Below are positions 7,613 to 25,667 of a stretch of 64,000 nucleotides of DNA, one piece after another. A program made the translations under genes and the position numbers. Within the stretch, counting starts at the first letter, position 1; the number at the start of each line of letters is the position of its first letter. The notes below the pieces were generated by a model that had not been told where the DNA came from, did not search any database, and saw nothing but the letters and a program-made list of their open reading frames with translations. Source of the DNA: Anaerolineaceae bacterium. Lineage in GTDB: Bacteria; Chloroflexota; Anaerolineae; Anaerolineales; Anaerolineaceae. The stretch lies in the NCBI GenBank assembly GCA_050013615.1, contig JBEKEX010000002.1, positions 8,661 through 72,660 on the forward strand, in the 5' to 3' direction.

Positions 7613-7654
7613 AAATACTCTGAATGTGAACCCGATCAACCTTCAAACCCTCGT

Positions 7655-7696: not shown

Positions 7697-7861
7697 GCCC
7701 TAATATAGCCCAAATTGCTTGCATTTCCCCAAGGAAATTCGTTCCGGTGCCACAGGACGGTTGTCACTATCTGTTTTTTGCCAAAGTGCATCATAATCAT
7801 TAATGTTCCGTAATATTCCTGTAATTGCCTAAATTCTCAACATTCAACCAAGGAGGAAAGT

Positions 7862-8101: not shown

Positions 8102-8111
8102 GAGGAAAAGC

Positions 8112-9224: not shown

Positions 9225-9236
9225 GAGATGATAGAT

Positions 9237-10016: not shown

Positions 10017-10027
10017 GGAGGAAACCC

Positions 10028-10567: not shown

Positions 10568-10797
10568 CCATCCAAAGCGTGATCGAAAAGCTTAAAATAA
10601 ACAACTTGGCCGGCAATCAATGCCGGCCATTTTTTGTGTGTAAGTGCTCGCGAGACCGTCAGGAAGACGACCAGTCCTGATCGACCAGCACCCAGCCCAA
10701 TGAATCGGCTGCCTTCTGCTTCTGGAAATGCCCACCGCTGTCGACGCTTCCGGTGAAAACGTCATTGGCCATATCGAGCACTTCCCCCTGCCGCTCG
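10508..10797. repeat. Direct repeat copy A. It covers the 3' end of the OFOR gamma gene, the terminator and the 3' end of wzt, all parts of intact genes.
   Basis: It aligns by eye with 27999-28287 (see copy B). Confidence 0.85.
10606..10635. terminator. Bidirectional intrinsic terminator between the convergent gamma-subunit and wzt genes
   Basis: The hairpin ggccggca-atcaa-tgccggcc is flanked by an A-run upstream and tttttt downstream. Confidence 0.7.
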
Positions 10798-11918
10798 ATT
10801 TGAAGAGAAATACTGATGTTACCCGGGGCAATGGGAAATTTAGTGATCTTACACGTCACAGAACCTGTTCGGGACTTCAATTTCAACGACCCGGCGGTTG
10901 TTCTCGTGGAAAGATTCGAGATGACGTCCCCGTTCAGCGTCTTCAGCAAGATCGAAAAATTGACGTCCGTCACAGGCGTGGGATAGCTCGTCTCGTACTC
11001 GATCACAAAGCTCGTGGGCGAACCGCTCGTCAGCGTATCCACGACCGCCCCATGCTCGCCGCGGATGGTAAACCCGGTGATCTTTATCGGCCCGGCCGGC
11101 AGCCCCTGGCGGCTTTCTTCGAGCTCATACTTGCTTTCCGACACGACAGAAGAGAGGTAGTACTCGACTGCATCCGACACGCGGCCAAGCGGGAACGCTA
11201 CATTTCCGTGTTCGAGTACCATCGCCTGGTTGCATAGGGAAGCCACCGTGGTCATATTATGGCTGATAAAAAGGATCGTCCCGCCATTCAAAGAGACTTC
11301 CTTGATCTTGGCTATACTTTTCTGTTGGAAAGCCGCGTCCCCCACCGACAAGACCTCATCGACCAACAAAACCTGCGGGTGCAGGTGAGCTGCCACTGAA
11401 AAAGCCAAGCGCACTTCCATGCCTGAGGAGAAGCGCTTGACCGGTGTATCGAGGAATTGCTCGACGCCCGAGAACGCCACGATCTCGTCGAATTTCTTCT
11501 TGATCTCGGCTCGCGACATCCCTATGATCGATCCGCTGATAAAAATATTTTCCCTGCCGGTCAACTCGGAGTGGAAACCGGTGCCTACTTCGAGCAGTGA
11601 GCCCACTCTGCCATAGATGGTGACCCTGCCGGTCGTGGGTTGCGTGACGCGGCTCAAGATTTTGAGCAGAGTGCTCTTCCCTGCCCCGTTCCTGCCGATG
11701 ATACCGATGATATCACCTTCATTGGCTTCGAAGGAAACATCCTGGAGCGCCCAAAAAGTGGTGTACTTGCCTTGGCCTGTCCCATTGCGGAGTCGATTCG
11801 CAAAGTTCATTACATCATCGACCAGTACGCGCTGATTCTGGCGCCAGCCTATCCCAGTGTTAGGGCGGAGCCTGTAGCGTTTAGAGATGCTCTCTGTTCG
11901 GAGAATAAAATCAGACAT
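10659..11918 (-). CDS. wzt: Polysaccharide/glycopolymer export ABC transporter ATP-binding protein (Wzt/TagH type) with a C-terminal extension
   Basis: It has Walker A GRNGAGKST, the signature FSSGMEVRLAFS and Walker B LLVDEVLSVGD. About 170 aa follow the NBD, as in Wzt C-terminal glycan-binding domains. It overlaps the permease gene by 1 nt. Confidence 0.8.
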   Translation of the reverse strand: MSDFILRTESISKRYRLRPNTGIGWRQNQRVLVDDVMNFANRLRNGTGQGKYTTFWALQDVSFEANEGDIIGIIGRNGAGKSTLLKILSRVTQPTTGRVTIYGRVGSLLEVGTGFHSELTGRENIFISGSIIGMSRAEIKKKFDEIVAFSGVEQFLDTPVKRFSSGMEVRLAFSVAAHLHPQVLLVDEVLSVGDAAFQQKSIAKIKEVSLNGGTILFISHNMTTVASLCNQAMVLEHGNVAFPLGRVSDAVEYYLSSVVSESKYELEESRQGLPAGPIKITGFTIRGEHGAVVDTLTSGSPTSFVIEYETSYPTPVTDVNFSILLKTLNGDVISNLSTRTTAGSLKLKSRTGSVTCKITKFPIAPGNISISLQIERQGEVLDMANDVFTGSVDSGGHFQKQKAADSLGWVLVDQDWSSS

Positions 11919-12772
11919 CAGATATAATCCGCAAAACTTCGCTCTAAGCGACTAAAGATGAACAGGCCGATGATAAAAATGATGCAGGAGGCGATAGCCG
12001 AATAAACGAGGGACTGCAAAGGAAAGTCGATGGTGGTAAAGAATGCCCAACGGAAGCCATTGATCAAGCCAACGATTGGGTTCAAATCGTAGATCCAGCT
12101 CCAACTTGCCGGGATCAACTTGGCCGAATACGCCAGCGGTGAGGCAAACATCCACACCTGGATGATGAACGGCAGAGCATAGGAAAAATCACGATAATAA
12201 ACATTGAGAGCAGCAAAAATGGTCCCCACCCCGATCGCAAGCATCAGAACAAAAACAACCAGCACGGGGATGATGAGCAAATTCAGTGAGAATGGCATCC
12301 GGTACACCAATAACAAAATGACCAAAACGGCCAGCGATACCAAGAAATCGACCAGCGTGGAAAGGGCTTCTGAAATCGGAAGGATGATGCGGGGAAAAAA
12401 TATCTTGGTGATAAGCCGCAAATCCTTGGTCAGGCTGTCGCTGGAACGTTGGAGCGATTGTGCGAAAATATTCCACGGCAATAGACCCGAAAAAGCGTAC
12501 AAAGAATAATTGATATTCTCCGAAGGTGCTTTCATCAATTGGCCGAAGATGAGGGTAAAGATGACCGTGGTCAACAACGGTTGAAGAATGACCCAGGTGA
12601 CGCCTAGAAATGTTTGGCGGTAGCGGAGCTGCACTTCGCGCATCGCCAGCATCCAGAGCAGTTCACGATGTTCCCATAATTCTTTGAGATTGAGGTTGAA
12701 CCACTTTTCGGACGGCTCGATGACCATTTTTTTTAGCTTTGGGGGGTCCGGCATTTTCTCAACCGACATCAT
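11918..12772 (-). CDS. wzm: ABC-2 type polysaccharide export permease (Wzm/TagG type)
   Basis: At 284 aa it has about 6 hydrophobic segments. The N-terminal ELWEHRELLWMLAMREVQLRYRQTFLGVTWVILQP is typical of the ABC-2 family. It is translationally coupled to wzt (TGATG overlap). Confidence 0.8.
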   Translation of the reverse strand: MMSVEKMPDPPKLKKMVIEPSEKWFNLNLKELWEHRELLWMLAMREVQLRYRQTFLGVTWVILQPLLTTVIFTLIFGQLMKAPSENINYSLYAFSGLLPWNIFAQSLQRSSDSLTKDLRLITKIFFPRIILPISEALSTLVDFLVSLAVLVILLLVYRMPFSLNLLIIPVLVVFVLMLAIGVGTIFAALNVYYRDFSYALPFIIQVWMFASPLAYSAKLIPASWSWIYDLNPIVGLINGFRWAFFTTIDFPLQSLVYSAIASCIIFIIGLFIFSRLERSFADYI

Positions 12773-12993
12773 TTTTTCCTTTATCGGGAATTCGATTCAG
12801 CAAAAAGCAAAATTCTGATTTTTCTATATTATTGCGAATGATTGGCTCCCAATTAAATAACCCGAATTTCCCTTCCACGCTTGCATTTTCTTGTTAGCGA
12901 GCCTGCGCATTATTATACCGTAAGCTATACGCTTCGGCAAAATCGACCAAGCTCAATCAAATCTTTTACTCATGAAACGAGCTTATAAAATGA

Positions 12994-13021
12994 TTGACTT
13001 AGGATAGCAAATCTCTATAAT
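12994..13021 (+). promoter_or_regulatory. Sigma70-like promoter for the methyltransferase gene
   Basis: TTGACT (12994-12999), a 16-nt spacer and TATAAT (13016-13021). Confidence 0.45.
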
Positions 13022-13133
13022 GGTCTTATAAAATTGGCAATCTCAATACTTGCCAGTAACAACCTGATGCGGTGACCCTCAACAGGGGTTATTATATTCT
13101 TTGCCAATCGAATTCGAAAACCTGAATAATGGG

Positions 13134-13808
13134 ATGAATATGGAAACTTTGCAAGAACGTGCCAACAAGATTAAAGCAGAAGGGATCTTCCTCGGTGGTG
13201 TTCCTCAACGATTTGAGATTGCCGGCCGAACACTTTTAATCACCCTGTTGAGTGAGGGTTTACATCCTTATTCCAAAGTCCTGGACATTGGCTGCGGATG
13301 CCTGCGTGGGGGATATTGGCTTATTCACTTCCTTGATAAAAACCGCTATTTTGGCATAGAGCCCAACAAGAAAATGCTCGATGCAGGGCTCCAATATCTT
13401 TTGGAGCCGGGGTTATACGAGGAAAAGAATCCGCACTTCGATAATAATTCGGATTTTAACTTTGATGTCTTCAAGGAAAAGTTCGATTTTCTCGTGGCGC
13501 TTTCGATATGGACCCACGCTTCGAAGCCCCAAATTCAAAGCATGCTGGATGGTTTTGTCAGTACCACCGACACAAAAGGGGTATTTATCACCTCGTACTA
13601 TCCCGCGACGATATTCAAACCTGATTACAAGGGCGCAAACTGGATCGGGGCTGGGAATCCTGCACAACCGCACGGGATGATCCATCACAGTCTTGGATGG
13701 ATCAAAGCCGAATGTGAAAAAAGAGGGTTGGTTGCCCAAGAGGTTCCGGAAAAGGCGTACCAATACTGGAATCAAACCTGGCTGAAGATTAGCCATAAAG
13801 CGGCCTGA
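13134..13808 (+). CDS. Class I SAM-dependent methyltransferase
   Basis: It carries motif I, VLDIGCGCLRGGYW. The start is ambiguous between the TTG at 13101 (track) and the ATG at 13134 or 13140. Confidence 0.65.
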   Translation: MNMETLQERANKIKAEGIFLGGVPQRFEIAGRTLLITLLSEGLHPYSKVLDIGCGCLRGGYWLIHFLDKNRYFGIEPNKKMLDAGLQYLLEPGLYEEKNPHFDNNSDFNFDVFKEKFDFLVALSIWTHASKPQIQSMLDGFVSTTDTKGVFITSYYPATIFKPDYKGANWIGAGNPAQPHGMIHHSLGWIKAECEKRGLVAQEVPEKAYQYWNQTWLKISHKAA

Positions 13809-13853
13809 ATCCTTCAGTAAGTTTGACCTTTTATCAAGCGATGAATAACTCTA

Positions 13854-16487
13854 TCATGAAATTTCTTCGATATATCGCTGAATGATCTCAGCCACTTGAC
13901 TCACTGCCGGCTCGAACAAGATACTCCCATGATAGCAATCCAAAGGATGAATGACCAATTCACCTAAGGAAACCCGATTCCAGCCATTGGTTGGATTCTT
14001 TGAAGCCGGCCCGCGAATGGCCTTGAAAAGGATCACCCGTCCCGGGTAAGGGAGCACCTGGTATTCCCGCGTCGCCTGACGGTTAACCTTTTCCATCTGG
14101 AGGATGCTTACCGGAAGCGCAATCTGCCTGGTTTTTTTCGATTTTCCACGGTGACTTTCCAAAAACCGCTCAACCCTTTGCTGACCAATCTCCCGGTAGA
14201 ACCGCAGATAATCCATTTTCCCTTGCCAATTAGATTTTAACAGAATGGTGAAGTGCTTCTTGATCAACATTTCATAATAAGGCACACTCTTCTTTTCGCG
14301 ATAACCATCGCTTATTGACTCTTCCATATTATATGTGTCCAGCATCACTAGCACGGGAACTTGTTTGTCGGTTTTCAACAACTGTTGGGCCATTTCGTAG
14401 GCAATCTTGCCACCTGATGATTCGCCAATGAGCACGTAGGGGCCATGCGAATAGAGCTTTTTGATCTCGGCCAGGTAATAAGCAGCCATGGTTTCGATCG
14501 AGCGCGAAATCTGCTCCCGGTTGTCGTTGCTCAAATCCTGCAAAGCGAACACCGGTGTCTGAGGATCGATCTTTTTAGCCAGGTGACGGATCCGGGTAGG
14601 ATAACCGCCTTTGCCCGGAATAAAGAACAAAGGGGCATGGTCACCCTCGGTATTGATGGGAATAATGGGTGAATAATTTTGTGCCTCATCCTCGTTTCGG
14701 ATCAGTTCCGCTTGCTTGCGGATGGTGGGGGCAATCAGAAGTGTCGAGACCGGCAAATTCTTGCCCAAGGCTTCTTCGATGGCGGCAAAAATGAGCGCAC
14801 CGATAAGCGAATCGCCACCCACTTCGAAGAAATCGTCTGTGACACCAACCCCGTTGACGCCGATTTGTTCTTCCCAGATCGCCATCAATTGCTTTTCCAG
14901 CTCATCGGCAGGGGGTACGTAATCATTGGAAAGCGGCGGCCGAACCATTTTTGGAAGCGGAAATTGGTTGATGGCCACTTTACCGCTCATGGTTAATGGA
15001 AATTCATCGAGCTCGATTAAATAATGAGGCAGCACAGCCGCTGGCAACCGTTCGGCCAAATATTTGCGGAGATCCGAGACAGGAATTTGAATGCCTTTTT
15101 CCGCAACAAAATATAAAGCCAGTCTCTTGTTCCCATTGTGATCCTCAAAAGTTCGAGAGGCAACCTGGACAATGCCAGGGTAGGAAAGTATATAATTCTC
15201 GATGCTCTCCAGTTCGATTCGGATCCCGCGAATCTTGACCATGTTGTCGATCCTGCCTAGGTGTACCAATTGACCATCGGATCGCAGCGTCCCCAGATCG
15301 CCCGTTTTGAAATATTGCCATCCCGGATGATCAGGGTCGGGAATAAACCTCTCCTGGGTCAGTTTCGAATTATTGATATATCCTCTCGCCAAGACATCCC
15401 CATAGACAACGATCTCGCCCTCCTGGTCGGGCGGCAAGGGGCACCCCTGCTCATCCCAAATATAAACTTTTATATCCTCATAAGGCTCCCCGCAGGGAAG
15501 ATTATCCTGCCCAAAGTTAAAATCGATCGGAAAGAATGTAGAAGAAACAGCCTGCGTTTCCGTGGAAGCAAAACCAAGCTGGATTCGCTTCACACCAGGA
15601 AAATATTTCTTGATATCCTGAATATCCTTAGGAAGCCTCTTCTCTGATCCCACATGAACAGTGTTGACACACGGAAATTTATCATTTGGGCCTAATATAC
15701 TGACCATGCTTCGGAATAGCGTAGAAGTAGATCGATAAACAGTAATCTGTTGCTGGCGAATCCAATTGGGCAAGTCAGCAAAGCCATCTTCTTTGACATC
15801 GTAATAACAAATCGTAAAGCCGGACACCAGTGCGTTAAAAACAAGAAGATGTAAACCGGAATAAGCAAATGTAGCTAATTGCAAAACACGGTCACTCGGT
15901 TCAAGGCTATGAGTTGATACTTTAAGAAACGCGGCCCGGCCTAAATAACGATAGTCTTCGATGGCACCTTTCGGCTGACCAGTCGAGCCTGATGTGAATA
16001 GAATTTGCACAATATCACCCGAAGAATAATTCACCTCCGGTTCGCTAATTTCTTGCTCAAAATCCACTTCATCGAGGTTAAGGATCATGACTTTATCCCC
16101 CACCAGGGAGCGGATCTGATCTAAATAAGAACTGACAGTCAAAATGACTCTAATCTCAGCATTATCGAGCATATAACGAAGCGTCGATTCTGGATAGTTC
16201 ATGCTCAGCGGGACAAAGTAATTTCTGGATTTCAAGATCCCTATCATGGACGGGATGATCTTGGAGTGATCATTCATAAACAAGCCAACCCCCAAGCCCG
16301 TTTTGCCTTTTTCAAGTTCCTGGATACGCGCAAAGATAACATTGGCCCGTTGGTTAATTTCGGCATAGGTCAATGATCCATTTTTAGTGACCAAAAATTC
16401 TTTATCCGCGTATTCACGGACAGTCTGCTTAGCCAATTTCCAATAATTATTAATGTAATCATCTCGCGTGAATTCACTACGCATCAT
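13854..16487 (-). CDS. Stand-alone NRPS-like synthetase with adenylation, thiolation (PCP) and thioesterase domains (A-T-TE), copy 1
   Basis: The A-domain cores are LTYAEINQRAN (A1), ILFTSGSTGQPKGA (A3), GEIVVYGDVLARGYIN (A6), FKTGDLG (A7), GRIDNMVKIRGIRIELESIE (A8) and SGKVAIN (A10). The PCP motif is FFEVGGDSLIG. The TE has PLFFIPGKGG, the nucleophile elbow GESSGGKIA and a C-terminal His (CYHGS). Confidence 0.85.
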   Translation of the reverse strand: MMRSEFTRDDYINNYWKLAKQTVREYADKEFLVTKNGSLTYAEINQRANVIFARIQELEKGKTGLGVGLFMNDHSKIIPSMIGILKSRNYFVPLSMNYPESTLRYMLDNAEIRVILTVSSYLDQIRSLVGDKVMILNLDEVDFEQEISEPEVNYSSGDIVQILFTSGSTGQPKGAIEDYRYLGRAAFLKVSTHSLEPSDRVLQLATFAYSGLHLLVFNALVSGFTICYYDVKEDGFADLPNWIRQQQITVYRSTSTLFRSMVSILGPNDKFPCVNTVHVGSEKRLPKDIQDIKKYFPGVKRIQLGFASTETQAVSSTFFPIDFNFGQDNLPCGEPYEDIKVYIWDEQGCPLPPDQEGEIVVYGDVLARGYINNSKLTQERFIPDPDHPGWQYFKTGDLGTLRSDGQLVHLGRIDNMVKIRGIRIELESIENYILSYPGIVQVASRTFEDHNGNKRLALYFVAEKGIQIPVSDLRKYLAERLPAAVLPHYLIELDEFPLTMSGKVAINQFPLPKMVRPPLSNDYVPPADELEKQLMAIWEEQIGVNGVGVTDDFFEVGGDSLIGALIFAAIEEALGKNLPVSTLLIAPTIRKQAELIRNEDEAQNYSPIIPINTEGDHAPLFFIPGKGGYPTRIRHLAKKIDPQTPVFALQDLSNDNREQISRSIETMAAYYLAEIKKLYSHGPYVLIGESSGGKIAYEMAQQLLKTDKQVPVLVMLDTYNMEESISDGYREKKSVPYYEMLIKKHFTILLKSNWQGKMDYLRFYREIGQQRVERFLESHRGKSKKTRQIALPVSILQMEKVNRQATREYQVLPYPGRVILFKAIRGPASKNPTNGWNRVSLGELVIHPLDCYHGSILFEPAVSQVAEIIQRYIEEIS

Positions 16488-16509
16488 CAATGTCCTTTTG
16501 ATAATAAGA

Positions 16510-16536
16510 GGCGGGAATAAACTTGTTCTTCCCGCC
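16510..16536 (-). terminator. Hairpin (attenuator or partial terminator) between SBP copy 1 and synthetase copy 1
   Basis: An 8-bp GC stem (ggcgggaa / ttcccgcc) is followed on the minus strand by the U-rich cucuuauuauc. It ends about 20 nt upstream of the synthetase start. Confidence 0.4.
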
Positions 16537-16690
16537 CCGCTATTTCAATCTACTGGTGAAGTAACTCCATTCACTTGAGCGCTCGTATCTCCTGGTCGGT
16601 CAAAATCACCCTCCAAACCAGTTCCTACAAAAGGTGAAAAACAATTTGGAGGTCAAAAAAAAAGAATCTATAGTAAAGCCTCTACCATAT

Positions 16691-17779
16691 TTATGGGTTG
16701 AGCAACTTTTGCCCTGCGGCAAGGAAGCTCGGATCCCAGAATTGATCCTCGGTAATGGGTTGTGCCAATTGACCTTGTGCGATTGACCATTTCTGGAAAT
16801 TGTCCACTCCCGAAAAATTAATCGAACCATCTACGCTGATTGGTATCCAGCAGGAGGTTTTCAGATCTGGAATGCTGACTTTCGTCGCATCAGACACGAT
16901 CTGCAAATTCCGGTCGGTCTTTCCCAGGTTGTATTGTTGAACACCCTTCAAGTAAGCAGCCATGAAGCGTGCGCCGACATCCGGGTGGTCCACCAGCAGA
17001 TTCTTACCAAAGGCCAGGATCGCGAGTTGTGTTGTTCCCACAACATCTTGCGCTCCGGTTAAAACAACCGCATTTCCAGTAGCCATCAACTTTGTTACCC
17101 ACAGCTCTGGCGCAACAATTGCAGCCACCGATTTATTATTGAGTGCATCAACGTAACCGGCTGTGGGAACATTATTTAATACTACATCATTTAAAGTTAA
17201 GCCAGCCTGCGCCAAATATGCGCTTAAAAAATATCCGCTTGTCCCGGAATTCGTGGATACGATGATCTGGCCTTTCAAATCCGCCGCTTTGGTAATCTTT
17301 CCACTATCATACAAATCTTTGCGCACCATAATGCCCACGTAAGTGCAGCTATCGCCAGGAGCTATGTGTCCCCGGTCTGCTACCACTTTGACATTTTTCT
17401 CCTGACCCAAGACATTTAAAAGTCCAGCATCAATGGAACTGGCGTAGGCATCCAGGTCACCAGAAACTAGCAAAGGAAGTGCTTCGTTCGACTTATTGAC
17501 GGTGACATAATCAACTTTGATGCCATATTCCGTAAAATACCCCTCTGCTTCTGCGATGAAAATTGGCGCAAAACTGGGAACTGAAGAACTGTTAATTTTC
17601 ACTGTGACCATCTCGTACGTGGCAGTTTGTGCCGATGTTGCCATGACCGGCTGTGTGGTTGATACAACGGTGTCAACTGCCGTGGAGCTTTGGCTGGCCC
17701 CAGTAGTTGTTGCGCCGCTGCAGCTACTTAATAGAACCGCGATAAATACAAGCAAAGTAGGTAACAAATTCCTCTTCAT
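16691..17779 (-). CDS. Lipoprotein solute-binding protein, NMT1/SsuA-like (NitT/TauT ABC family), copy 1
   Basis: It has a signal peptide with the lipobox LLSSC and an S/T-rich linker. The body is alignable along its full length to the SBP at 18049-19122. The ATG at 17779 is preceded by ggaggag. Confidence 0.75.
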   Translation of the reverse strand: MKRNLLPTLLVFIAVLLSSCSGATTTGASQSSTAVDTVVSTTQPVMATSAQTATYEMVTVKINSSSVPSFAPIFIAEAEGYFTEYGIKVDYVTVNKSNEALPLLVSGDLDAYASSIDAGLLNVLGQEKNVKVVADRGHIAPGDSCTYVGIMVRKDLYDSGKITKAADLKGQIIVSTNSGTSGYFLSAYLAQAGLTLNDVVLNNVPTAGYVDALNNKSVAAIVAPELWVTKLMATGNAVVLTGAQDVVGTTQLAILAFGKNLLVDHPDVGARFMAAYLKGVQQYNLGKTDRNLQIVSDATKVSIPDLKTSCWIPISVDGSINFSGVDNFQKWSIAQGQLAQPITEDQFWDPSFLAAGQKLLNP

Positions 17780-18048
17780 CACTTCTCCTCCGTTTGAGAA
17801 CATAATTTACCTAGCCTAGACACACATTATACTAAATTCGCAAAAACTAATAAAGCATTACCTCCTACAACCGCCAAAAATCAACTACAAGTGAACATTC
17901 GATGTATGATATGTCCTTGCAAGTTCACTATCACCTATCGAGCCATAATTTTTCAAAACGATATCCGTTTTATTGCATATCCATGATTATTTAATATATA
18001 ATTAACCCCATCAGGTAATTATTACAATTTTTCATGTTTGGAGGAGTC

Positions 18049-19122
18049 ATGCGAGCAAAATTTCTTGTATTAATTATTGTTTTCACATTTCTAGTCAGCT
18101 CTTGCAGTAGTACCACGTCACCAGTGAGCGTGGTAAATATCCCTACAACTGCCAATACTCAAGTTGCATCAAGCACCACAGCACCATCAACGGTGGCTTA
18201 TACACCAATCACTTTGAAAATGTCGATGACAAAACACACCAGCTTCGCCCCAATATTTATTGCACAAGCTGAGGGTTATTTCAAGGATTATGGCATCGAT
18301 CTGCAAATTGTGCCGGCCAGTGGAGCTACACAGACCGTGGCGTTATTTGTTGCCGGTACCGTCGATATCTATGGCGGGACTTTGAATTCCGGTTTGATAA
18401 ACATGATAGCCAAAGACTCAAATATAAAAGTAGTAGCCGATCGAGGACATTTTGGGTCCGGAGAATGCACATATGAAGCTATTGTGGTTCGAAAAGATCT
18501 TTATGATAGCGGCAAAATTACATCCGCTAAAGACCTCGCCGGTCAGACAATTGCTTCCACTGCCACAGGGCCAGATGCCTATATCCTGGCCACTTACCTG
18601 GCACAAGCCGGATTGACATTGAAAGATGTTTCTCTTAATGACGTTCCCAACACGAGTTATATCGACGCATTTAACAACAAAACCATCGCTGCCGTTGTGA
18701 CCCCAGAGCTCAACCTCTCAAAATTAATGGCTGCCGGAAATGCTGTAATCCTGGCCAGTGCCCAAGACATCATCGGCAATTATCAGGTTAGTGTACTGGC
18801 CTTTAGTAAGAGTATAACTGTGGACAACCCTGACGCAGGTGCCCGATTCCTGGCAGCCTACTTAAAAGGCGTTCAACAATACAACCTCGGTAAAACAGAT
18901 AGTAATCTGCAGATTCTTTCTACCGCCACTGGAGAAGCGACAGATACGCTGAAGAATTCATGCTGGTTACCCATCAACGAAAACGCATCGATCGATTTCT
19001 CAGGCGTGAATGGTTTTCAGCAATGGGCTTTGTCGCAAGGACTAATAGATAGTGCCGTCTCCGAAAATCAATTTATGGATATGAGTTTTCTGGCTGCAGC
19101 ACAAAAGCTGATCAATAAATAG
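18049..19122 (+). CDS. Lipoprotein solute-binding protein, NMT1/SsuA-like (NitT/TauT ABC family), copy 2
   Basis: It has the lipobox LVSSC. Blocks shared with copy 1 include SFAPIFIA.AEGYF, KVVADRGH, VRKDLYDSGKIT, YLAQAGLTL.DV and GARF.AAYLKGVQQYNLGKTD.NLQI. The ATG at 18049 is preceded by ggagga. Confidence 0.75.
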   Translation: MRAKFLVLIIVFTFLVSSCSSTTSPVSVVNIPTTANTQVASSTTAPSTVAYTPITLKMSMTKHTSFAPIFIAQAEGYFKDYGIDLQIVPASGATQTVALFVAGTVDIYGGTLNSGLINMIAKDSNIKVVADRGHFGSGECTYEAIVVRKDLYDSGKITSAKDLAGQTIASTATGPDAYILATYLAQAGLTLKDVSLNDVPNTSYIDAFNNKTIAAVVTPELNLSKLMAAGNAVILASAQDIIGNYQVSVLAFSKSITVDNPDAGARFLAAYLKGVQQYNLGKTDSNLQILSTATGEATDTLKNSCWLPINENASIDFSGVNGFQQWALSQGLIDSAVSENQFMDMSFLAAAQKLINK

Positions 19123-19157
19123 GCTAATTCTTCATTAAGTGCGCTTAAGTTTAAAGC

Positions 19158-19196
19158 ATAAGGGGTAGGAGTGACGGAGTCATACTTACCCCTTAT
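19158..19196 (+). terminator. Hairpin (attenuator or partial terminator) between SBP copy 2 and synthetase copy 2
   Basis: A perfect 10-bp stem (ataaggggta / taccccttat) with a 19-nt loop, followed by uaauggcucuu. Confidence 0.4.
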
Positions 19197-19225
19197 TAAT
19201 GGCTCTTCAAATCCGCGGAACTATA

Positions 19226-21853
19226 ATGTTGCCAAAAGAAATAAACCAATTAACCAAAGAAGAACTCCTAGGAAACTTCTGGGATTATGTAAAACGCTCC
19301 ATAGAACTCAATGGTGAGAAAATATTTATTGCTACCAAAACGGGCTCTACCACCTATAAAGAAGCAAATCAACGAGCCAATGCCATTTATCAGGTAATTA
19401 AAGAGAATATAGAAACGACTGGGATAGGAATTGGACTATTTATGAAAGACCCCCATCAAATCATTCCGGCTATGATGGGCGTTTTAAAATCCGGAAATTA
19501 TTTCATCCCATTGGATGTAACCTTCCCCCAATCCACGTTGCTAGACATGATCAAAGTTGCTGAGATCAAAGTTGTCTTGACCGTCAGTGAATTAAAAAAC
19601 CAGATTCGTTCTCACCTAGGAGAAAATATCCCGATCCTCAACATCGATACATATCCTAACATAGATGAAATCGAAGATCCCGTCGTCCATTACACGCCGG
19701 AAGACATTGTTCAAATATTGTTTACCTCTGGATCAACGGGAAAACCTAAAGGAGCAATCGAGGATTACCGTTATTTAACTCGCGCCGTTTTTATAAAACT
19801 TTCTTCTTACGAATATGCGCAGGACGAACGACTTTTACAAACATCCAAGTTCACTTTCGCCGGGCCGCATTGCATCGCCTTCACTGCACTCATTAACGGG
19901 ATCACCTTATGTTATTACAGTGTTTCAGAAGAGGGAATTGCCGGATTGCCGGATTGGATCCGGCAACAGCAAATTACTTCCTACTCAACGACCCCAACAG
20001 TATTTCGAAGTCTCGTCAGCATTTTGAAGCCTGATGACATTTTTCCCTCCATCCGATATACCAGTTTTGGGGGCGAGAAGAGATTTGGCAACGACATCAA
20101 GGCGATTAAAAAATATTTCCCCAACGTAGAAAAGATACGTTTGGGGTTCAATTCCACTGAAACCCAAGCGGTTGCTGCGACCATCTACCCGGCCAATTAT
20201 GGTTTTGATCAGAATCAACTTCCTAGCGGCAAACCCTACAAAGATCTCCACGTTTTCATCTGGGATAAGGAAGGCCATGCTTTGCCCAAAGGACAAGAAG
20301 GAGAAATCGTGGTCCACGGAGACTTCATGGCGCGTGGGTATATCAATAATCCCAATTTGACCATGGAAAAGTTTATTCCTGATGCCAGTCATCCCGGCTG
20401 GCAATTCTACAAAACCGGCGACCTGGGGAAATTGCTGCCAGATGGTCAACTGGTGCACCTGGGCCGGATGGATAATATGGTCAAGATTAGGGGAATGCGC
20501 GTCGAACTTGACAGCATCGAAAACCACTTGCTATCATACCCTGGCATCAGCGAGGTTGCCTCGAAGGCAATTGAGGATTTAAAGGGCAATAAAAGGTTGG
20601 TCACTTATTTTGTGTCGAAAGAAGATACTCAAATCCCCATCCCGGATTTACGCAGATACCTGGCAGGACGATTACCGGCGCATTCGCTCCCCCACTACTT
20701 AATCAACCTGAAAATATTTCCCCGTACCGGCAATAATAAAATCGCCTACGACCAATTGCCGCCGCCTGAAATGATCCGTCCCAACCTGGCCAATGAGCTT
20801 GTCCCTCCCGCCGATGAACTGGAAGATAAATTACTGGAACTTTGGGAAGATCAATTGGGGATTAAAGGAATCGGCGTCACCGATGATTTTTTTGAGGTCG
20901 GCGGCGACTCACTGATGGGCGCTCTTTTGTTCGCCGCGGTCGAAGAAACCTTGGGAAGAAATTTGCCGGTCACCGTCTTGCTAAAGGCCCCTACCATTCG
21001 CGAGCAAGCAGCCTGGATCCGAAACAAAGATTCAGCCCAAGATACCCCCTCGATCATACCCGTCAGAACAAGCGGAGATCGTCCGCCCCTGTTTTTTATT
21101 CCTGGAAAAGGTGGCTATCCCACGCGCATACGTCATCTGGCCAAGAAACTGGACGAACGAATACCGATCTATGCCTGTCAGGATTTGATGGAAAATGAGA
21201 ATGGCAATTCTTTTCACTCGGTAGAATCTATGGCAGCCCGTTATTTGAGAGAAATGGAAGAGCTATATCTTCATGGCCCATACATCCTGGTTGGCGAGTC
21301 TGTGGGAGGGAAAATTGCTTACGAAGTTGCTCAAAACTTGCTCAGCAGAGGCGAACAAGCACCCATCTTAATCTTGTTGGACACCTATAATTTTGACGAT
21401 TCAGCCATAGAAGATTTTCGTAACGATCAAAACAGCTATTACAGGATGCTGGTTAATAAACACCTTTCCATTTTGCTCCGATCGAATTGGCAAGGAAAGC
21501 TGGACTACCTACAGTTCTATAGAAAAACATTCATCCAAAAAGCCAGGCGCTTTATAGGCCGTCGTATAAACAGAAAACGACAAAGCACAAGCACTGCACT
21601 ACCAGAAAACATCCGTAGAATCGAAAAGGCAAACCGCATAGCCGCACAAGTTTACGAGACAAAACCCTATCCAGGGAAGATAGTCTTGATCAAAGCGCTG
21701 CGAGGACCCAAAGCGAACGAGACGTCGAATGGGTGGGATAAAGTTCAATTGGGTGAACTGGTTGTCCACAAAATAGATTGTTACCATGGAAGTATACTAT
21801 TCGAACCCGCCGTCAGCCAGGTTGCAGGTATAATTCAAGGACTCCTCGAATAA
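19226..21853 (+). CDS. Stand-alone NRPS-like synthetase (A-T-TE), copy 2
   Basis: The motifs are ILFTSGSTGKPKGA, GEIVVHGDFMARGYIN, YKTGDLG, GRMDNMVKIRGMRVELDSIE, PCP FFEVGGDSLMG, and TE PLFFIPGKGG / GESVGGKIA / CYHGS. It is collinear with copy 1. I prefer the ATG at 19226 over the track start at 19199, which sits inside the hairpin. Confidence 0.85.
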   Translation: MLPKEINQLTKEELLGNFWDYVKRSIELNGEKIFIATKTGSTTYKEANQRANAIYQVIKENIETTGIGIGLFMKDPHQIIPAMMGVLKSGNYFIPLDVTFPQSTLLDMIKVAEIKVVLTVSELKNQIRSHLGENIPILNIDTYPNIDEIEDPVVHYTPEDIVQILFTSGSTGKPKGAIEDYRYLTRAVFIKLSSYEYAQDERLLQTSKFTFAGPHCIAFTALINGITLCYYSVSEEGIAGLPDWIRQQQITSYSTTPTVFRSLVSILKPDDIFPSIRYTSFGGEKRFGNDIKAIKKYFPNVEKIRLGFNSTETQAVAATIYPANYGFDQNQLPSGKPYKDLHVFIWDKEGHALPKGQEGEIVVHGDFMARGYINNPNLTMEKFIPDASHPGWQFYKTGDLGKLLPDGQLVHLGRMDNMVKIRGMRVELDSIENHLLSYPGISEVASKAIEDLKGNKRLVTYFVSKEDTQIPIPDLRRYLAGRLPAHSLPHYLINLKIFPRTGNNKIAYDQLPPPEMIRPNLANELVPPADELEDKLLELWEDQLGIKGIGVTDDFFEVGGDSLMGALLFAAVEETLGRNLPVTVLLKAPTIREQAAWIRNKDSAQDTPSIIPVRTSGDRPPLFFIPGKGGYPTRIRHLAKKLDERIPIYACQDLMENENGNSFHSVESMAARYLREMEELYLHGPYILVGESVGGKIAYEVAQNLLSRGEQAPILILLDTYNFDDSAIEDFRNDQNSYYRMLVNKHLSILLRSNWQGKLDYLQFYRKTFIQKARRFIGRRINRKRQSTSTALPENIRRIEKANRIAAQVYETKPYPGKIVLIKALRGPKANETSNGWDKVQLGELVVHKIDCYHGSILFEPAVSQVAGIIQGLLE

Positions 21854-21877
21854 AGTATCAACGAGAACAATAGATCA

Positions 21878-22645
21878 ATGACGATTATCTTCAACAATAT
21901 CAGCAAAAAGTTTGCCAAAAATACAGACCACGAAGTTGAAGCCCTTGATAAGGTCGATTTTACAATCGAGGAGCATGAATTTGTTGCTATTGTAGGCCCC
22001 AGCGGTTGTGGAAAGACCACCTTGCTGCGAATTGCAGCAGGGTTGATCAAGCAGGATACAGGCCAAATCATCTACCGTGGTATCAAAAACCCCAAAGCGA
22101 TCCTGGTATTCCAGGATAAGGGGTTGCTCCCCTGGCTGACCGTATTGGATAACATTTGTCTTGGCCTGGAACTGCAAGGGGTCCCCAAGGCCATTCGTGA
22201 AAAACGCGCACTTGATTTTATGAAACTGGTCAAGCTGGGCGGTTTCGAAAAAAACTATCCTCATGAACTATCAGGGGGCATGCAGCAACGAGTAGCCCTG
22301 GCGCGCGCTTTCCTCACCAATCCAGACGTATTGCTCATGGATGAGCCCTTTGGAGCGCTGGATGCCCAAACGCGGACCATTCTTCAAGAAGAATTGTTGA
22401 ACCTCTGGTTTAGGGAACGCAAAACGGTCCTGTTCGTAACGCATGACATCGACGAAGCCATTCTATTGAGCGACCGTATCATCGTGCTCAGTGACCGGCC
22501 CGGTAAGATACAACAAACGATCGTCGTACCCATGAGTCGCCCCCGCGACCTGAAATCAAAGGACGACCCAAGGTTCCTTGAGATACGTTCGCAGATATGG
22601 AGTTTGCTGGAGCAAGAAGTACGCAAAGAATTGGAATTGATTTGA
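21878..22645 (+). CDS. ABC transporter ATP-binding protein, NitT/TauT (SsuB/TauB-like) family
   Basis: It has Walker A GPSGCGKTT, the signature LSGGMQQRVALARA and Walker B LLMDEPFGALD. Confidence 0.85.
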   Translation: MTIIFNNISKKFAKNTDHEVEALDKVDFTIEEHEFVAIVGPSGCGKTTLLRIAAGLIKQDTGQIIYRGIKNPKAILVFQDKGLLPWLTVLDNICLGLELQGVPKAIREKRALDFMKLVKLGGFEKNYPHELSGGMQQRVALARAFLTNPDVLLMDEPFGALDAQTRTILQEELLNLWFRERKTVLFVTHDIDEAILLSDRIIVLSDRPGKIQQTIVVPMSRPRDLKSKDDPRFLEIRSQIWSLLEQEVRKELELI

Positions 22646-22652
22646 GATTCGT

Positions 22653-23432
22653 ATGCAAAAGAATACCAAGTATACCCGCGAACATCTGATCACTTTTGGT
22701 TTGGTTTTTGGGTTTCTTGCGATTTGGGAAATTTGTGCCCGGACCGGTAAGATTTCTGCACTCATTTTCCCACCCCCCACGGTGATCATCCAATCATTTT
22801 TTATTGATCTGGTACATGGCGTATATACGAAGGATACGCTTATCTCCTTATCCAGGATGTTCATCGGCATTATCATCGGCGGCGGAATTGGCCTGATCTT
22901 GGGATTGATCATGGGATGGTCAAAGCCCATACGAGCAACCCTTGATCCCATTATCTCTGCATTGCTCCCCATTCCCAAGCTAACCCTCCTGCCCATGGCT
23001 CTGATCATCTTCGGGCTGGGAGAGACATCGCGCACCGTAATGGTCAGCATCAGCGCATTTTTTCCAATGCTCATTAATGCCATGGTTGGGGTAGCGCAAA
23101 TCAACCCGAACTATTATGAAGTCATTGAAAACTACGGTGCATCTCCCTTTGATATATTTCGAAAAGTCGTCCTTCCAGGAAGTATGCCGTTCGTTTTGAG
23201 TGGATTCCGTTTATCCTTCCAGGCTGCATTAATGATCACCGTTGGAGTCGAGATGATGTGGGGTAACGATGGCCTGGGATCTGTTTTGTGGCTGGCATGG
23301 GAAACCATGCGAATGACAAATTTGTACGCAGTTTTAATTATCATCTCAATCATTGGCGTTGGGTTCAATTGGCTGTTGGAATACTTGCAAGCCGTTCTAC
23401 TCCCTTGGCATCACGAAAACCGCCCCTCCTGA
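22653..23432 (+). CDS. ABC transporter permease, SsuC/TauC-like (binding-protein-dependent inner membrane component)
   Basis: It is a 259-aa polytopic protein. It directly follows the ATPase with a 7-nt gap. Confidence 0.75.
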   Translation: MQKNTKYTREHLITFGLVFGFLAIWEICARTGKISALIFPPPTVIIQSFFIDLVHGVYTKDTLISLSRMFIGIIIGGGIGLILGLIMGWSKPIRATLDPIISALLPIPKLTLLPMALIIFGLGETSRTVMVSISAFFPMLINAMVGVAQINPNYYEVIENYGASPFDIFRKVVLPGSMPFVLSGFRLSFQAALMITVGVEMMWGNDGLGSVLWLAWETMRMTNLYAVLIIISIIGVGFNWLLEYLQAVLLPWHHENRPS

Positions 23433-23450
23433 GGGGCGGTTTGTTTTTTT
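23419..23450 (+). terminator. Intrinsic terminator after the ABC importer operon
   Basis: The stem accgcccctc / gaggggcggt overlaps the stop codon and is followed by ttgttttttt. Confidence 0.75.
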
Positions 23451-23555: not shown

Positions 23556-24692
23556 TCAATCTTGGCCTGCAATAACTTCACGAAAAACGAACTCGTAGCT
23601 ATCTACTACCGCTTTTATATCAAACCGACTGGCGTGTTCCAGGCTGTTCTTGCGGGCCTTTAGGAGAGTCTGGTGGTCAGACAGAAATCGGCGTAATGCG
23701 CCAGAAAGTGCATTTCGATCACCCGGTTCTGCAAGATAGCCGTTAAAGTTTTGTTCCACCAGGTCCGAAAACCCTCCCACATTGTTTGCCACGATAGCCA
23801 ATCCGCAAGCCAGCGCTTGAATCCCGACCATTGGCAATCCTTCGGACAAAGAAGGCATGAAAAGGATATCGCTCTGTTCTAAATAGTGTTGCGCTTCGTC
23901 CTGTGTGGCCCAACCAGTCAATGTGAATCGATCTTTCAAGCTCAATTCATCGATGCGACCCTGAATCTCCCTGCGAAGCGGCCCATCTCCTACCAACATG
24001 CAACGCCATGGCACATCGCGCACCAAATTCAAAACCTCTACCAGTTCCATGAGATTCTTTTGCTGCACAAACCGTCCAACAAATATGACAGCCGGCGGCT
24101 CATGGATTGATAATTGCCCGGTCCCAATGGCCTTGATATCCAAACCGTTGGGGATTATCTGGGGAGTTATCCCATACTGCTTATAGGTCAGTGAAGCCGT
24201 GAATGAACTGACCGCCGTACTGCGGGCAGCGTGTTTCCAAATAGACGCCGTCAACAGATAGACCCAACGAAACCACCTATCGGTCTTTTCGGGCACCCCA
24301 CCGGGCACATCGCCCAGGTGTGCGGTGAGCACGTATGGTATTCCGGTCATTCGATGGAGAACCCAGGCAACCGCCCCACCTGGAACAGCAAAGTGCACAT
24401 GGATCAGGTCGGGACGCCAATCACGGACGATCTTATAGCCCGCGTTAATGGCAGAAATGACGAACAAACCCATCGTCAGGAAGCCAGCTTTATAGGGTTG
24501 TTTCCTAAAAGAAGGCAGGCGGATCAGCCGAACATTGTTAATGAGCTCTTCTCTGGGGAGCCCCTTCAAATGCGCGGTGAGAACGGTGATTTCATGCCCC
24601 CTGCGTGCCAGTTCATTTACAATTGCCTGGCACGACTGCCCCCCTCCACCACCTATGGGAGGATATTCATGGTTGATAACCAGGATGCGCAT
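23556..24692 (-). CDS. Glycosyltransferase family 4 (GT-B fold)
   Basis: It has MRILVINHEYPPIGGGGGQ at the N-terminus and a C-terminal PSLSEGLPMVGIQALACGLAIVANNVGG region (EX7E-like). Confidence 0.8.
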   Translation of the reverse strand: MRILVINHEYPPIGGGGGQSCQAIVNELARRGHEITVLTAHLKGLPREELINNVRLIRLPSFRKQPYKAGFLTMGLFVISAINAGYKIVRDWRPDLIHVHFAVPGGAVAWVLHRMTGIPYVLTAHLGDVPGGVPEKTDRWFRWVYLLTASIWKHAARSTAVSSFTASLTYKQYGITPQIIPNGLDIKAIGTGQLSIHEPPAVIFVGRFVQQKNLMELVEVLNLVRDVPWRCMLVGDGPLRREIQGRIDELSLKDRFTLTGWATQDEAQHYLEQSDILFMPSLSEGLPMVGIQALACGLAIVANNVGGFSDLVEQNFNGYLAEPGDRNALSGALRRFLSDHQTLLKARKNSLEHASRFDIKAVVDSYEFVFREVIAGQD

Positions 24693-24698: not shown

Positions 24699-25667
24699 TT
24701 ATTTCTTGGTTTTATCGTTGACCACGGTGCGAACCGTATAAATGGATTTTCCTTGCGCTTCATGATAAGTACGGATCAGCAACTCGGCTATCAAGCCCAT
24801 CAGCAGGGATTGAAAGCCAAGGATGAAAACGACAATGCTGATCTGGAAAAGGGGTGATTCCAAGATCGATGTAAAAAGCAGGAATTTTCGCACCACCAGA
24901 AATGCGAACACGACCAGGCTAGACGCCATTAATCCCAATCCCACACCGCCAAACAGCCGCATCGGTTTCGCAGAATAGCTCATCAGAAATTTGACCGTGA
25001 ACAAATCAAGGACAACTTTAACCGCCCGGTCGAGACCATAATTGCTTTTCCCATGTTTTCGGGGATTGTGGTGGACCACCACCTCGGTTACTTTAGCGCC
25101 GGCAGCTTCAGCATAGACCGGGATGAAGCGATGCATTTCCCCATAAAGATGGAACGAGCCCAAGAACTCACGACGATAAGCCTTAAGGGTACAGCCATAA
25201 TCATGTAAATGAAGGCCCGTCACCCATGAAATGAGCCCGTTGGCGAGATTGGAGGGAAGCGTACGTGTCAGATAGTTATCTTTGCGGTCCTTGCGCCATC
25301 CGCTGACGACATCGTAGCCTTCATCCAACTTTGCCAGGAGAAGTGGAATATCCGCCGGGTCATTCTGCAGATCGGCATCCAATAAGATGACGATATCACC
25401 TTGGGCGCGATCGATCCCAGCAGCGATGGCTGCAGTCTGTCCATAATTACGCCTTAGCTCTACCACCCGGATATGGGCTTGATCTTCCTGTTCGAAGCCT
25501 TTCAATATTTCCACGCTATGATCGATGCTACCATCATCGACAAATATGATCTCCCAATCGAGTTTCAACGGTTCGATAGACTTCCTTACCGCATCGCTCA
25601 AAGGGACCAAATTCTGCTCTTCGTTATAGACGGGAATAATTAGGGTTAAGTCCATTGAACCGTTCAC
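24699..25667 (-). CDS. GT2 polyprenyl-phosphate glycosyltransferase (GtrB/ArnC/DPM1-like) with a C-terminal membrane anchor
   Basis: It contains IIPVYNEEQNL, IIFVDDGSIDHS and the DxD motif LLDADLQNDP. There are two C-terminal hydrophobic helices. Confidence 0.8.
   Translation of the reverse strand: MNGSMDLTLIIPVYNEEQNLVPLSDAVRKSIEPLKLDWEIIFVDDGSIDHSVEILKGFEQEDQAHIRVVELRRNYGQTAAIAAGIDRAQGDIVILLDADLQNDPADIPLLLAKLDEGYDVVSGWRKDRKDNYLTRTLPSNLANGLISWVTGLHLHDYGCTLKAYRREFLGSFHLYGEMHRFIPVYAEAAGAKVTEVVVHHNPRKHGKSNYGLDRAVKVVLDLFTVKFLMSYSAKPMRLFGGVGLGLMASSLVVFAFLVVRKFLLFTSILESPLFQISIVVFILGFQSLLMGLIAELLIRTYHEAQGKSIYTVRTVVNDKTKK

Follow-up and report, generated by a model that had tools for sequence, protein, structure and literature searches.

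A 64,000-nucleotide stretch of contig JBEKEX010000002.1 from an Anaerolineaceae bacterium (the window) contains two gene pairs, each encoding a lipoprotein substrate-binding protein (SBP) and a stand-alone adenylation–thiolation–thioesterase enzyme (A-T-TE), alongside the genes for the ATPase and permease of an ATP-binding cassette (ABC) importer. The parts belong to known families, the enzymes being nonribosomal peptide synthetase (NRPS)-like and the importer of the NitT/TauT type; their combination is not known. We consider it probable that they form a modular capture–import–activate system, in which exogenous carboxylic acids other than α-amino acids are imported and thioesterified at the transporter. 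Comparative sequence analysis indicates that import and adenylation are coupled, as judged from the domains and catalytic residues of the enzymes, a dedicated SBP clade, conserved gene adjacency, gene fusions, co-inheritance and the mutually exclusive replacement of one adenylating enzyme by another. From the same data we infer in which direction the flow runs (from imported acid to adenylation (A) domain), what kind of acid is involved and what becomes of the thioester. A preliminary description of this DNA had suggested such an import-then-activate coupling, and the idea survives our tests of adjacency, fusion and SBP ancestry as far as computation reaches.

Gene order in relatives ties the SBP to the enzyme. 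Nine further loci of the family were recovered by exact-protein look-up or genome scan. Genes for the ABC-2 transporter pair Wzt–Wzm are divergent from an SBP–A-T-TE–ATPase–permease operon in L004, and from an operon with two cassettes, SBP–A-T-TE–SBP–A-T-TE–ATPase–permease, in L005 and L087. In L002 the same Wzt–Wzm pair is divergent from three SBP genes, an A-T-TE::ATPase fusion and a permease, and L003 has at least seven SBPs and two A-T-TEs, the second of which is fused to the ATPase. L001 combines an SBP–A-T-TE–A-T-TE–SBP run on one strand with a divergent SBP–A-T-TE–ATPase–permease operon, followed by glycosyltransferase genes in the order GT4–GT2–PMT_2. Variants built of the same parts occur in L086 and L088, and in L085 just SBP–A-T-TE is present, the 1.2 kb or so of contig beyond it having no ATPase gene. 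A metagenome scan with an SBP profile extended the sample to 80 loci, 19 with an SBP at least 47% identical and 61 with an SBP at 31–38% identity. An A-T-TE is present in 16 of the 19 closer loci, the other three being too short to judge, and it adjoins the SBP gene in all 16 evaluable cases. Conservation of the neighbourhood, which the preliminary description had left to be checked, therefore extends to every close relative that can be evaluated.

In one subclade the enzyme and the importer ATPase are one polypeptide. Fusions of A-T-TE and ATPase form eight protein clusters. In the seven full-length clusters a linker of around 11 residues joins the thioesterase to an ATPase whose Walker A, LSGG and Walker B motifs are all intact; the remaining cluster (P0040, 949 residues) breaks off inside the ATPase. 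The fused ATPase is 68–70% identical to the window ATPase. Identity among the full-length fusions falls as low as 64%, so the fusion has been long maintained and is not a sequencing error.

The two members of a pair also diverge together. Across 15 adjacent pairs from ten loci, the divergence of the SBPs correlates with that of the A-T-TEs (Mantel r = 0.57, permutation p = 2e-4). Shared genome ancestry contributes to this correlation, and a swap of cassette order is more telling: the cassette that comes second in L087 has its orthologue in first place in L005 (SBPs 81% identical, A-T-TEs 59% identical), so SBP/A-T-TE pairs stay together while their order changes.

When the A-T-TE profile was run against a genome collection, matches to the generic NRPS carrier motif dominated, and the one true family locus among the hits was L005, alongside 79 other A-T(-TE) loci. 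Used as an outgroup, these 79 loci have an NMT1 SBP nearby in only three instances (L007, L071 and, weakly, L019). L007, from a Chloroflexia metagenome-assembled genome (MAG), holds a compact ATPase–permease–SBP–A-T-TE unit (L007:7285-12553) between glyQS and dnaG-rpoD. Its A-T-TE is 28% identical to the second window enzyme (ATTE2), there are no glycan genes at the locus, and the ATPase and permease are each split into two open reading frames (ORFs), reflecting frameshifts or long-read assembly errors. L071, from a Desulfomicrobium MAG, encodes an NMT1_2 SBP and, after it, a 945-residue A-T protein (L071:8835-12715). The C terminus of this protein, of about 300 residues, has no Pfam match, its catalytic Ser and His do not align and it is not recognizable as a thioesterase; the flanking genes encode a hybrid histidine kinase and a diguanylate cyclase.

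The wider SBP clade supplies the strongest case for import and adenylation being one function. The 61 loci with an SBP at 31–38% identity have the gene order SBP–ATPase–permease. An A-T-TE is encoded in 12 of them, usually directly after the permease, and a different protein, which we call X, in 27; none has both. One evaluable locus (L161) has neither enzyme, and 21 are too short to judge. An A-T-TE or X is thus found in 39 of the 40 evaluable operons, and the two are mutually exclusive. X is a cytoplasmic protein of 525–574 residues whose gene always lies immediately upstream of an SBP gene, often as a repeated cassette, giving operons of the form [X–SBP]n–ATPase–permease; L110 (4424-15759) has three such cassettes, and further X loci include L154, L141, L130, L135, L158 and L118. 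There are at least 2,290 homologues of X, every source-named one of which is called 'hypothetical protein'; the named homologues include proteins from Syntrophaceae and Deltaproteobacteria MAGs.

X has no Pfam match and no sequence match in the PDB, and comparison with the A-T-TE profile by hhalign gives no signal. In a Foldseek search with its AlphaFold2 model (predicted local distance difference test (pLDDT) score 83), the best match is PaaK1 (E = 4.6e-14) and the second best is NatL2. All of the top 50 matches listed are adenylate-forming (ANL-type) enzymes or domains, with TM-scores of only 0.2–0.43. The sequence carries a P-loop-like TGAGTR motif and a C-terminal Gly-Lys. X is therefore predicted, by structure modelling only, to have a PaaK-like adenylate-forming fold. 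On this assignment the SBP clade essentially always has an adenylate-forming partner from one of two very different families, which argues that import and adenylation are a single function, and the existence of X-type sister systems means that the reach of the system is wider than the window.

X-type operons recurrently carry genes for a CE4 polysaccharide deacetylase, a class I methyltransferase, GT4 glycosyltransferases and alkaline-phosphatase-superfamily 'Phosphodiest' proteins of 525–567 residues, and once for a sulfotransferase. Places where such accessory genes lie are L135:12503-13255, L146:1865-7018, L121:6296-7996, L154:6415-8073 and 18090-19682, and L138:6632-9697. A glycosyltransferase, a deacetylase and an ATP-dependent ligase together recall the logic of bacillithiol and mycothiol biosynthesis. 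In L118, after X–SBP–ATPase–permease, an ORF at 11610-14195 runs from the permease region into a TonB-dependent receptor (Plug and β-barrel), which may be a true neighbouring gene or a merged ORF. Such a receptor points to uptake, across the outer membrane of a diderm host.

All of the components expected of an importer are present in the window: SBPs of the NMT1/SsuA fold, a BPD_transp_1 permease and a TauB/SsuB/NrtD-like ATPase. SBP1 (370 residues, minus strand, 16691-17803; Pfam NMT1 and NMT1_2) and SBP2 (362 residues, plus strand, 18034-19122; Pfam NMT1/NMT1_2) have hydrophobic leaders that end in a lipobox (LLSSC in SBP1, LVSSC in SBP2) and are followed by a Ser/Thr-rich linker. The family is small, with 194 proteins at E <= 1e-10 among 5.8 billion. 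A public protein from an Anaerolineaceae MAG is 100% identical to SBP2, and SBP1 is 79% identical to the SBP that adjoins the ATTE1 orthologue in L001.

The SBPs score 65 bits against the NCBIfam SsuA_fam model (cutoff 163.5), and the importer scores 224 bits against TauB (cutoff 357), 117 against SsuC (347) and 98 against NrtB (209). We considered and rejected an equivalog of the sulfonate, taurine or nitrate importers (SsuABC, TauABC, NrtABCD), as the curated NCBIfam cutoffs are missed. Among NCBIfam models, the ATPase and permease score best with SaoA and SaoP, of the selenoprotein-associated Sao transporter, and here too the window proteins fall below the model cutoffs. Transport of an unrelated nutrient, which the preliminary description had named as a reading that would undo its proposal, is thus opposed by SBPs that form a small dedicated clade. 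An AlphaFold2 model of SBP2 (pLDDT 96) has TauA, SsuA, ThiY and PqqT as its best Foldseek matches, at 14–19% identity, with NrtA also among the top; these neighbours are too remote for a ligand to be assigned.

The enzymes ATTE1 (878 residues, minus strand, 13854-16490) and ATTE2 (884 residues, plus strand, 19199-21853) each match Pfam AMP-binding (1.5e-48 and 2e-46), PP-binding (2.1e-11 and 3.5e-18) and Thioesterase, in agreement with the domains read from the sequence by the preliminary description, whose NMT1 assignment was also matched in the profile search. The A, thiolation (T) and thioesterase (TE) domains lie at about 14979-16427, 14700-14891 and 13857-14633 in ATTE1 (minus strand) and at about 19298-20740, 20825-21019 and 21086-21850 in ATTE2 (plus strand). 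Neither protein has a Pfam match to a condensation domain (PF00668), and the scores against TIGR01733 (257 and 264 bits) are below the cutoff of 317. The A-T-TE has no signal peptide or transmembrane segment, unlike the SBPs with their lipoprotein leaders. In 33 family members, G568, G569 and D570 of the carrier motif are invariant and the carrier serine Ser571 (GGDSL) is kept in at least 90%; the thioesterase residues Ser701, Asp728 and His863 are likewise invariant, and the lid is conserved too. The closest solved thioesterases by sequence are EntF (50 bits), NocB and that of fengycin synthesis, with Pks13 weaker (27 bits).

For the specificity code we aligned the A domains to GrsA-PheA, using a reference sequence that, as a self-check, reproduces the canonical code DAWTIAAICK. 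The resulting codes are SGLRHG-AVK for ATTE1 and AGCSSG-AVK for ATTE2. Asp235, the residue that anchors the α-amino group, is replaced in all 76 clade members, by Ser (60), Ala, Gly or Thr, and by Ile and Pro once each; it is Ser in ATTE1 and Ala in ATTE2. Lys517 is invariant in the same 76 proteins. Pocket positions 235, 236, 301 and 331 are conserved across the clade, whereas positions 239, 278, 299 and 330 are among the 8–16% most variable columns of the A domain and are mostly polar (Thr, Ser, His, Asn, Gln, Arg and Tyr). The pocket would thus combine a common small scaffold near the carboxylate with a variable polar distal part, and the substrates, which would vary between cassettes, are likely to be acids other than α-amino acids. 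The absence of Asp235 from every clade member fits the earlier suggestion of a carboxylate rather than an amino acid. Because the pocket residues are polar and variable, they do not suggest an aromatic substrate; they suggest small polar acids.

Homologues of ATTE2 form about 80 clusters at 42–76% identity, after which identity drops to about 29–34%. The named members of this clade are from Anaerolineales or Chloroflexi MAGs, and ATTE1 is 78% identical to an A-T-TE in L001.

In the window itself the two gene pairs form divergent arms. The preliminary description had mapped six genes here, all of which are found as ORFs at the places it gave: on the left, SBP1 and ATTE1; on the right, SBP2, ATTE2, the TauB/SsuB/NrtD-type importer ATPase (plus strand, 21878-22645; Pfam ABC_tran and NCBIfam) and the type I importer permease (plus strand, 22653-23432; Pfam BPD_transp_1 and NCBIfam), which has six hydrophobic segments. 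Translation of ATTE2 probably starts at an ATG at 19226, preceded by AAGAGGA, and that of ATTE1 at an ATG near 16484; both lie internal to the mechanically called ORFs and agree with public gene calls. Only the right arm runs on into the ATPase and permease, and the left arm, lacking a translocator of its own, must therefore use that of the right arm.

The arms are collinear in DNA at only 63–66% identity. SBP1 and SBP2 are 52% identical over 364 residues and ATTE1 and ATTE2 are 57% identical over 871 residues. Third codon positions of the two A-T-TE genes are only 39% identical, from which it follows that the duplication is old and real, as the preliminary description had held; an assembly artefact or a recent duplication is ruled out by the same figure. 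The mirror-image layout on which that description laid weight is real in the window, but it is a local rearrangement that is otherwise seen only in L001, the closest relative of the window, the other relatives having tandem arrangements.

The spacer between the arms measures 230 bp from ORF to ORF (17804-18033; 31% GC), or about 17780-18048 with the likelier internal ATG starts of the SBPs, which agree with the public gene calls, which are the boundaries originally described for this AT-rich region. It presumably holds the promoters of both arms, with only weak promoter-like matches in it; a promoter-like site also lies at 12994-13021, ahead of the methyltransferase gene described below. Promoter and terminator scans did not rise above shuffle expectation, and no Rfam family, and so no riboswitch, was matched in 12.7–23.7 kb even at E <= 1. 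The convincing elements are only the terminator-like hairpin at the end of the right-arm operon (plus strand, 23417-23442; 11-bp stem with 7 GC pairs and a T tract) and the hairpins that follow the SBP genes.

A stable stem-loop after each SBP gene, as placed in the preliminary description, is present in both arms. Between SBP1 and ATTE1 it has a GC-rich stem followed by a U-rich tract (minus strand, 16508-16538, from folding); between SBP2 and ATTE2 it is an interrupted 17-bp stem-loop (plus strand, 19158-19196) with a folding z of -2.75, and 1 of 200 shuffles folds as well. Equivalent post-SBP stem-loops occur in L001 (9883-10000), L004 (9938-10000) and L005 (9886-9960), with z of about -3.6 to -4.0. 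L003 (9827-9970) shows a terminator-like stem and U tract by eye, but its folding z is -0.66. In these relatives the structure is conserved and the sequence is not, and a U tract is often next to it. The element may act as a partial terminator or messenger RNA stabilizer that gives an excess of SBP.

The cassettes are set among genes for glycan synthesis and export. To the left of ATTE1 are genes for a Wzt-type ABC ATPase with a C-terminal Wzt_C glycan-binding domain (minus strand, 10659-11918; Pfam ABC_tran and Wzt_C), a Wzm-type ABC-2 permease (minus strand, 11918-12772; Pfam ABC2_membrane) and a class I S-adenosylmethionine-dependent methyltransferase (plus strand, 13101-13808), the last with weak Pfam Methyltransf_12/25 matches below the gathering cutoffs. 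To the right of the importer permease are a GT4 glycosyltransferase (minus strand, 23556-24692; Pfam), a GT2 glycosyltransferase (minus strand, 24699-25667; Pfam) and a PMT_2/GT-C-type multi-pass membrane glycosyltransferase (minus strand, 25866-27722; Pfam) with about 12 hydrophobic segments. Pfam thus agrees with the flanking genes named in the preliminary description and specifies the glycosyltransferases as GT4, GT2 and PMT_2-type. The window has the parts of an ABC-transporter-dependent Wzm/Wzt glycan pathway (ABC2_membrane, ABC_tran with Wzt_C, GT4 and GT2), in which Wzt serves export of the glycopolymer. Wzt_C domains are described in PMC9445017 as recognizing chemically modified glycan termini.

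This setting recurs. Wzm/Wzt genes lie directly beside the cassettes in 13 of the 16 evaluable family loci, usually divergently, and also in the distant locus L166. The GT4–GT2–PMT_2 trio is found again in L001, L003 and L086, in L087, L088 and L103 the gene after the permease encodes a PMT_2-like protein, and homologues of the methyltransferase are present in the same loci of L001, L086, L088/L099 and L105. L002 and L004 contain LytR-CpsA-Psr ligase genes. Because Wzm/Wzt flank 13 of the 16 evaluable loci, a wall glycopolymer is plausible as the acceptor of the acyl group.

In the window as a whole, positions 12000-46000 have 39–49% GC, compared with 53–59% in both flanks, and hold the cassettes, the glycan genes, a SorC-type regulator, sugar-metabolism genes and phosphotransferase system components (EIIA, 29957-30415; EIIC-GAT, 30586-32001); this segment may be a variable or acquired surface-and-sugar island. 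Just upstream of the Wzt gene, 6239-10567 encodes a CMAS-family (cyclopropane/mycolic-acid synthase-like) methyltransferase and a three-subunit 2-oxoacid:ferredoxin oxidoreductase, for which no link to the cassettes is seen in relatives. An ordinary T-box leader (minus strand, 59933-60193), which at 97 bits exceeds the gathering score, precedes pheS-pheT (pheS, 58829-60043; pheT, 56264-58798) and shows that the mechanical pheS ORF starts inside the leader. Finally, a 558-residue ORF at 3035-4711 (plus strand) has no Pfam match at E <= 1e-6 and is overlapped by a 343-residue ORF on the opposite strand.

In the mechanism that we propose, each extracellular lipoprotein SBP would capture a particular exogenous carboxylic acid that is not an α-amino acid, and all SBPs would deliver to one shared TauT-type translocator composed of the permease and ATPase. 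At the cytoplasmic face, the cognate A-T-TE would adenylate the imported acid and load it onto its own phosphopantetheine arm, working at the transporter, to whose ATPase it is covalently fused in some relatives. The thioesterase domain would then hand the acyl group to a nucleophile. For the fate of the thioester we prefer, tentatively and at well short of even confidence, O- or N-acylation of a lipid-linked cell-wall glycopolymer, whose assembly would fall to the neighbouring GT4, GT2 and GT-C enzymes and whose export would fall to Wzm/Wzt; the number and order of the cassettes would then diversify surface chemistry. A more specific version is doubtful: that capture and attachment are programmable, with environmental acids captured by interchangeable SBPs, thioesterified on an A-T-TE that docks on the importer ATPase or is joined to it, and passed directly onto the lipid-linked glycopolymer before Wzm/Wzt export, maybe as a terminal cap read by Wzt_C, with cassette shuffling diversifying the surface. 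Were it correct, the Anaerolineae cell surface would carry acids gathered from the environment, and the much larger X family would serve the same purpose in Deltaproteobacteria, Latescibacterota and other groups.

Several observations weigh against this picture. The SBPs and A domains belong to clades without any known ligand, and the structural neighbours of SBP2, only 14–19% identical, bind very different ligands. No phosphopantetheinyl transferase gene was found in the 64-kb window; in favour of the picture, L150 has an Sfp-type phosphopantetheinyl transferase gene after the A-T-TE. As all close relatives fall in one class, inheritance could explain part of the synteny, which could thus be partly inherited rather than selected. 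The ratio of SBPs to A-T-TEs varies, L003 having at least seven of the former for two of the latter. Glycan genes are absent from the vicinity of the cassettes in L085, L098, L104 and the Chloroflexia locus L007, L104 is also without an adjacent ATPase and permease, and no acceptor-specific enzyme is conserved in all loci. All sequences are from metagenome assemblies, and the evidence is computational throughout.

Other arrangements of the same parts have to be weighed against import and activation of the acid. The SBPs might instead bring in the acceptor, an amine or alcohol, to which the A-T-TE would ligate an endogenous acid to give an intracellular conjugate. Such a system would explain the co-inheritance, the fusions and the PaaK-like replacement equally well. 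A further point in its favour is NatL2, which ranks second among the structural matches of X: it is PaaK-like and makes ester and amide bonds, not CoA thioesters. TauT-family SBPs, moreover, bind amines such as taurine and 2-aminoethylphosphonate (entry 6ssy). However, the A-domain pocket diversifies between paralogues, as expected if each cassette handles a different acid and less so with a common endogenous acid, and we regard import of the acceptor as unlikely. We give still less credence to uptake with metabolic trapping for catabolism, in which acids would be thioesterified at once on import, so that little free acid builds up and degradation is fed, as in anaerobic aromatic-acid pathways, and the thioesterase would pass the acyl group to CoA or release it. 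No catabolic genes of a β-oxidation-like or ring-reducing kind recur near the cassettes, where there are instead glycan genes, methyltransferases and deacetylases; a covalent carrier and thioesterase are of no obvious use for making a free CoA ester, and we know of no thioesterase that transfers to CoA. In favour of trapping are the best structural match of X, the phenylacetate-CoA ligase PaaK1, the Syntrophaceae and Deltaproteobacteria MAGs among the sources of the named homologues of X, and the fact that importer genes beside ligase genes are common in anaerobic aromatic-acid pathways.

The A-T-TE might, alternatively, use an endogenous acid to build a small secreted metabolite such as a chelator or signal, exported by the ABC-2 pair and retrieved, in its own or competitors' versions, by the SBPs and importer. 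Siderophore loci typically pair NRPS genes with SBP-dependent importers, and the presence of several SBPs recalls xenosiderophore piracy. Characterized A-T-TEs, as described in PMC9047271, do condense two acid units into small metabolites. Yet this importer is of the TauT type and not the FecCD/FhuD type, the Wzt bears a glycan-binding Wzt_C domain, the tailoring and regulator genes typical of siderophore clusters are not seen in the flanks, and a tether of around 11 residues between synthetase and importer ATPase makes little sense for a secreted product, so that making and retrieving a metabolite is improbable. As for a chance arrangement, in which a plain importer of sulfonate, nitrate or taurine adjoins an unrelated NRPS-like gene, as the generic public annotation of the SBPs ('NitT/TauT family') might suggest, it is effectively refuted by the comparative data, namely the conserved adjacency, the fusions, the co-inheritance, the dedicated SBP clade and the presence of an adenylating enzyme in 39 of 40 evaluable distant operons.

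If import and activation of the acid are coupled as we propose, this would be the first SBP-dependent ABC importer to be hard-wired, and sometimes fused, to a carrier-protein-based acyl-activating enzyme, with direct channelling from uptake to thioester chemistry. The proposal gives a testable role to 'NRPS-like' genes that genome mining would count as secondary-metabolite clusters in Anaerolineae, organisms that are abundant in digesters and sediments, and to the unannotated, well-conserved X family. Should the acceptor be a wall glycopolymer, it would represent a new way to decorate monoderm envelopes with scavenged molecules. Cognate pairs of SBPs and A domains would also offer a natural source of binding proteins matched to activating enzymes for small polar acids.

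The preliminary description knew of no characterized system with this architecture. None has come to light since: our searches yielded no orthologue from a characterized pathway, and we found no description of this architecture in the literature searched. A survey of Anaerolineae (PMC11748557) merely counts NRPS-like clusters. The fungal A-T-TE synthetases for atromentin, terrequinone and polyporic acid, according to PMC9047271, condense aromatic α-keto acids. Like the window enzymes, known A-T-TEs are single modules without a condensation domain; their substrates lack the usual α-amino anchor and their thioesterase carries out a bond-forming release, as we propose for the window enzymes. Further examples are the bacterial RalA and a cyanobacterial MysE-type enzyme. 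Identity between the window enzymes and the next A-T-TE clades, or LgrA, is only about 30%, the generic NRPS level, and none of the known enzymes is importer-linked, arranged in SBP cassettes or fused to an ABC ATPase. Their substrates are aromatic α-keto acids or an amino acid, whereas the pocket here is polar and variable; with the synthetases that dimerize aryl α-keto acids (quinone and furanone synthetases), the window A-T-TEs share only architecture.

On the transport side, TauABC, SsuABC, NrtABCD and ThiXYZ have the same SBP fold, permease family and ATPase type, and they too can have several SBPs per translocator and a hairpin after the SBP gene; unlike the window system, their characterized members have no adenylating enzyme in the operon. 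The features of a siderophore locus (an FhuD/FepB SBP, a FecCD permease and NRPS tailoring genes) are not in the locus or its flanks, which have an NMT1 SBP and BPD_transp_1 permease instead.

Envelope decoration by an adenylation enzyme and a carrier is known from Dlt, which D-alanylates teichoic acids, and AlmEFG, which glycylates lipid A, and the window cassettes are likewise set among wall-polymer genes. The likeness to Dlt drawn in the preliminary description holds as an analogy, but the defining features of Dlt are missing. The window A domain is without the Asp that binds the amino group, its carrier is fused and followed by a thioesterase, and its substrate seems to be imported. DltA models score 162–178 bits on the A-T-TEs against cutoffs of 476 and 560, and no separate DltC, DltB MBOAT, DltD or AlmG-type transferase is encoded among the ORFs of 10.6–27.7 kb. 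Transfer by a type I thioesterase to a sugar hydroxyl rather than water has a precedent in the Pks13 thioesterase, which moves mycolate to trehalose; its similarity to the window thioesterase is weak (27 bits, against 50 bits for EntF).

By analogy, the systems closest in logic are the pneumococcal Lic pathway and vectorial acylation. In the Lic pathway, choline is imported by LicB, activated by LicA and LicC and transferred to teichoic acid by LicD. As we propose for the window system, a scavenged molecule is activated in the cytoplasm and attached to a polymer before export, and the importer and activation genes lie in the polymer locus. Lic differs in using phosphorylation and cytidylylation rather than adenylation and thioester formation, in having unrelated proteins and in the absence of SBP cassettes. 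Vectorial acylation, as carried out by FadL–FadD, eukaryotic FATP and the sometimes fused LplT–Aas, handles fatty acids or lysolipids through non-ABC transporters, and has no SBP, no carrier and thioesterase and no paralogous specificity cassettes; what it has in common with the window system is transport coupled to ATP-dependent adenylation or thioesterification of the transported acid, together with the occurrence of transporter–ligase fusions.

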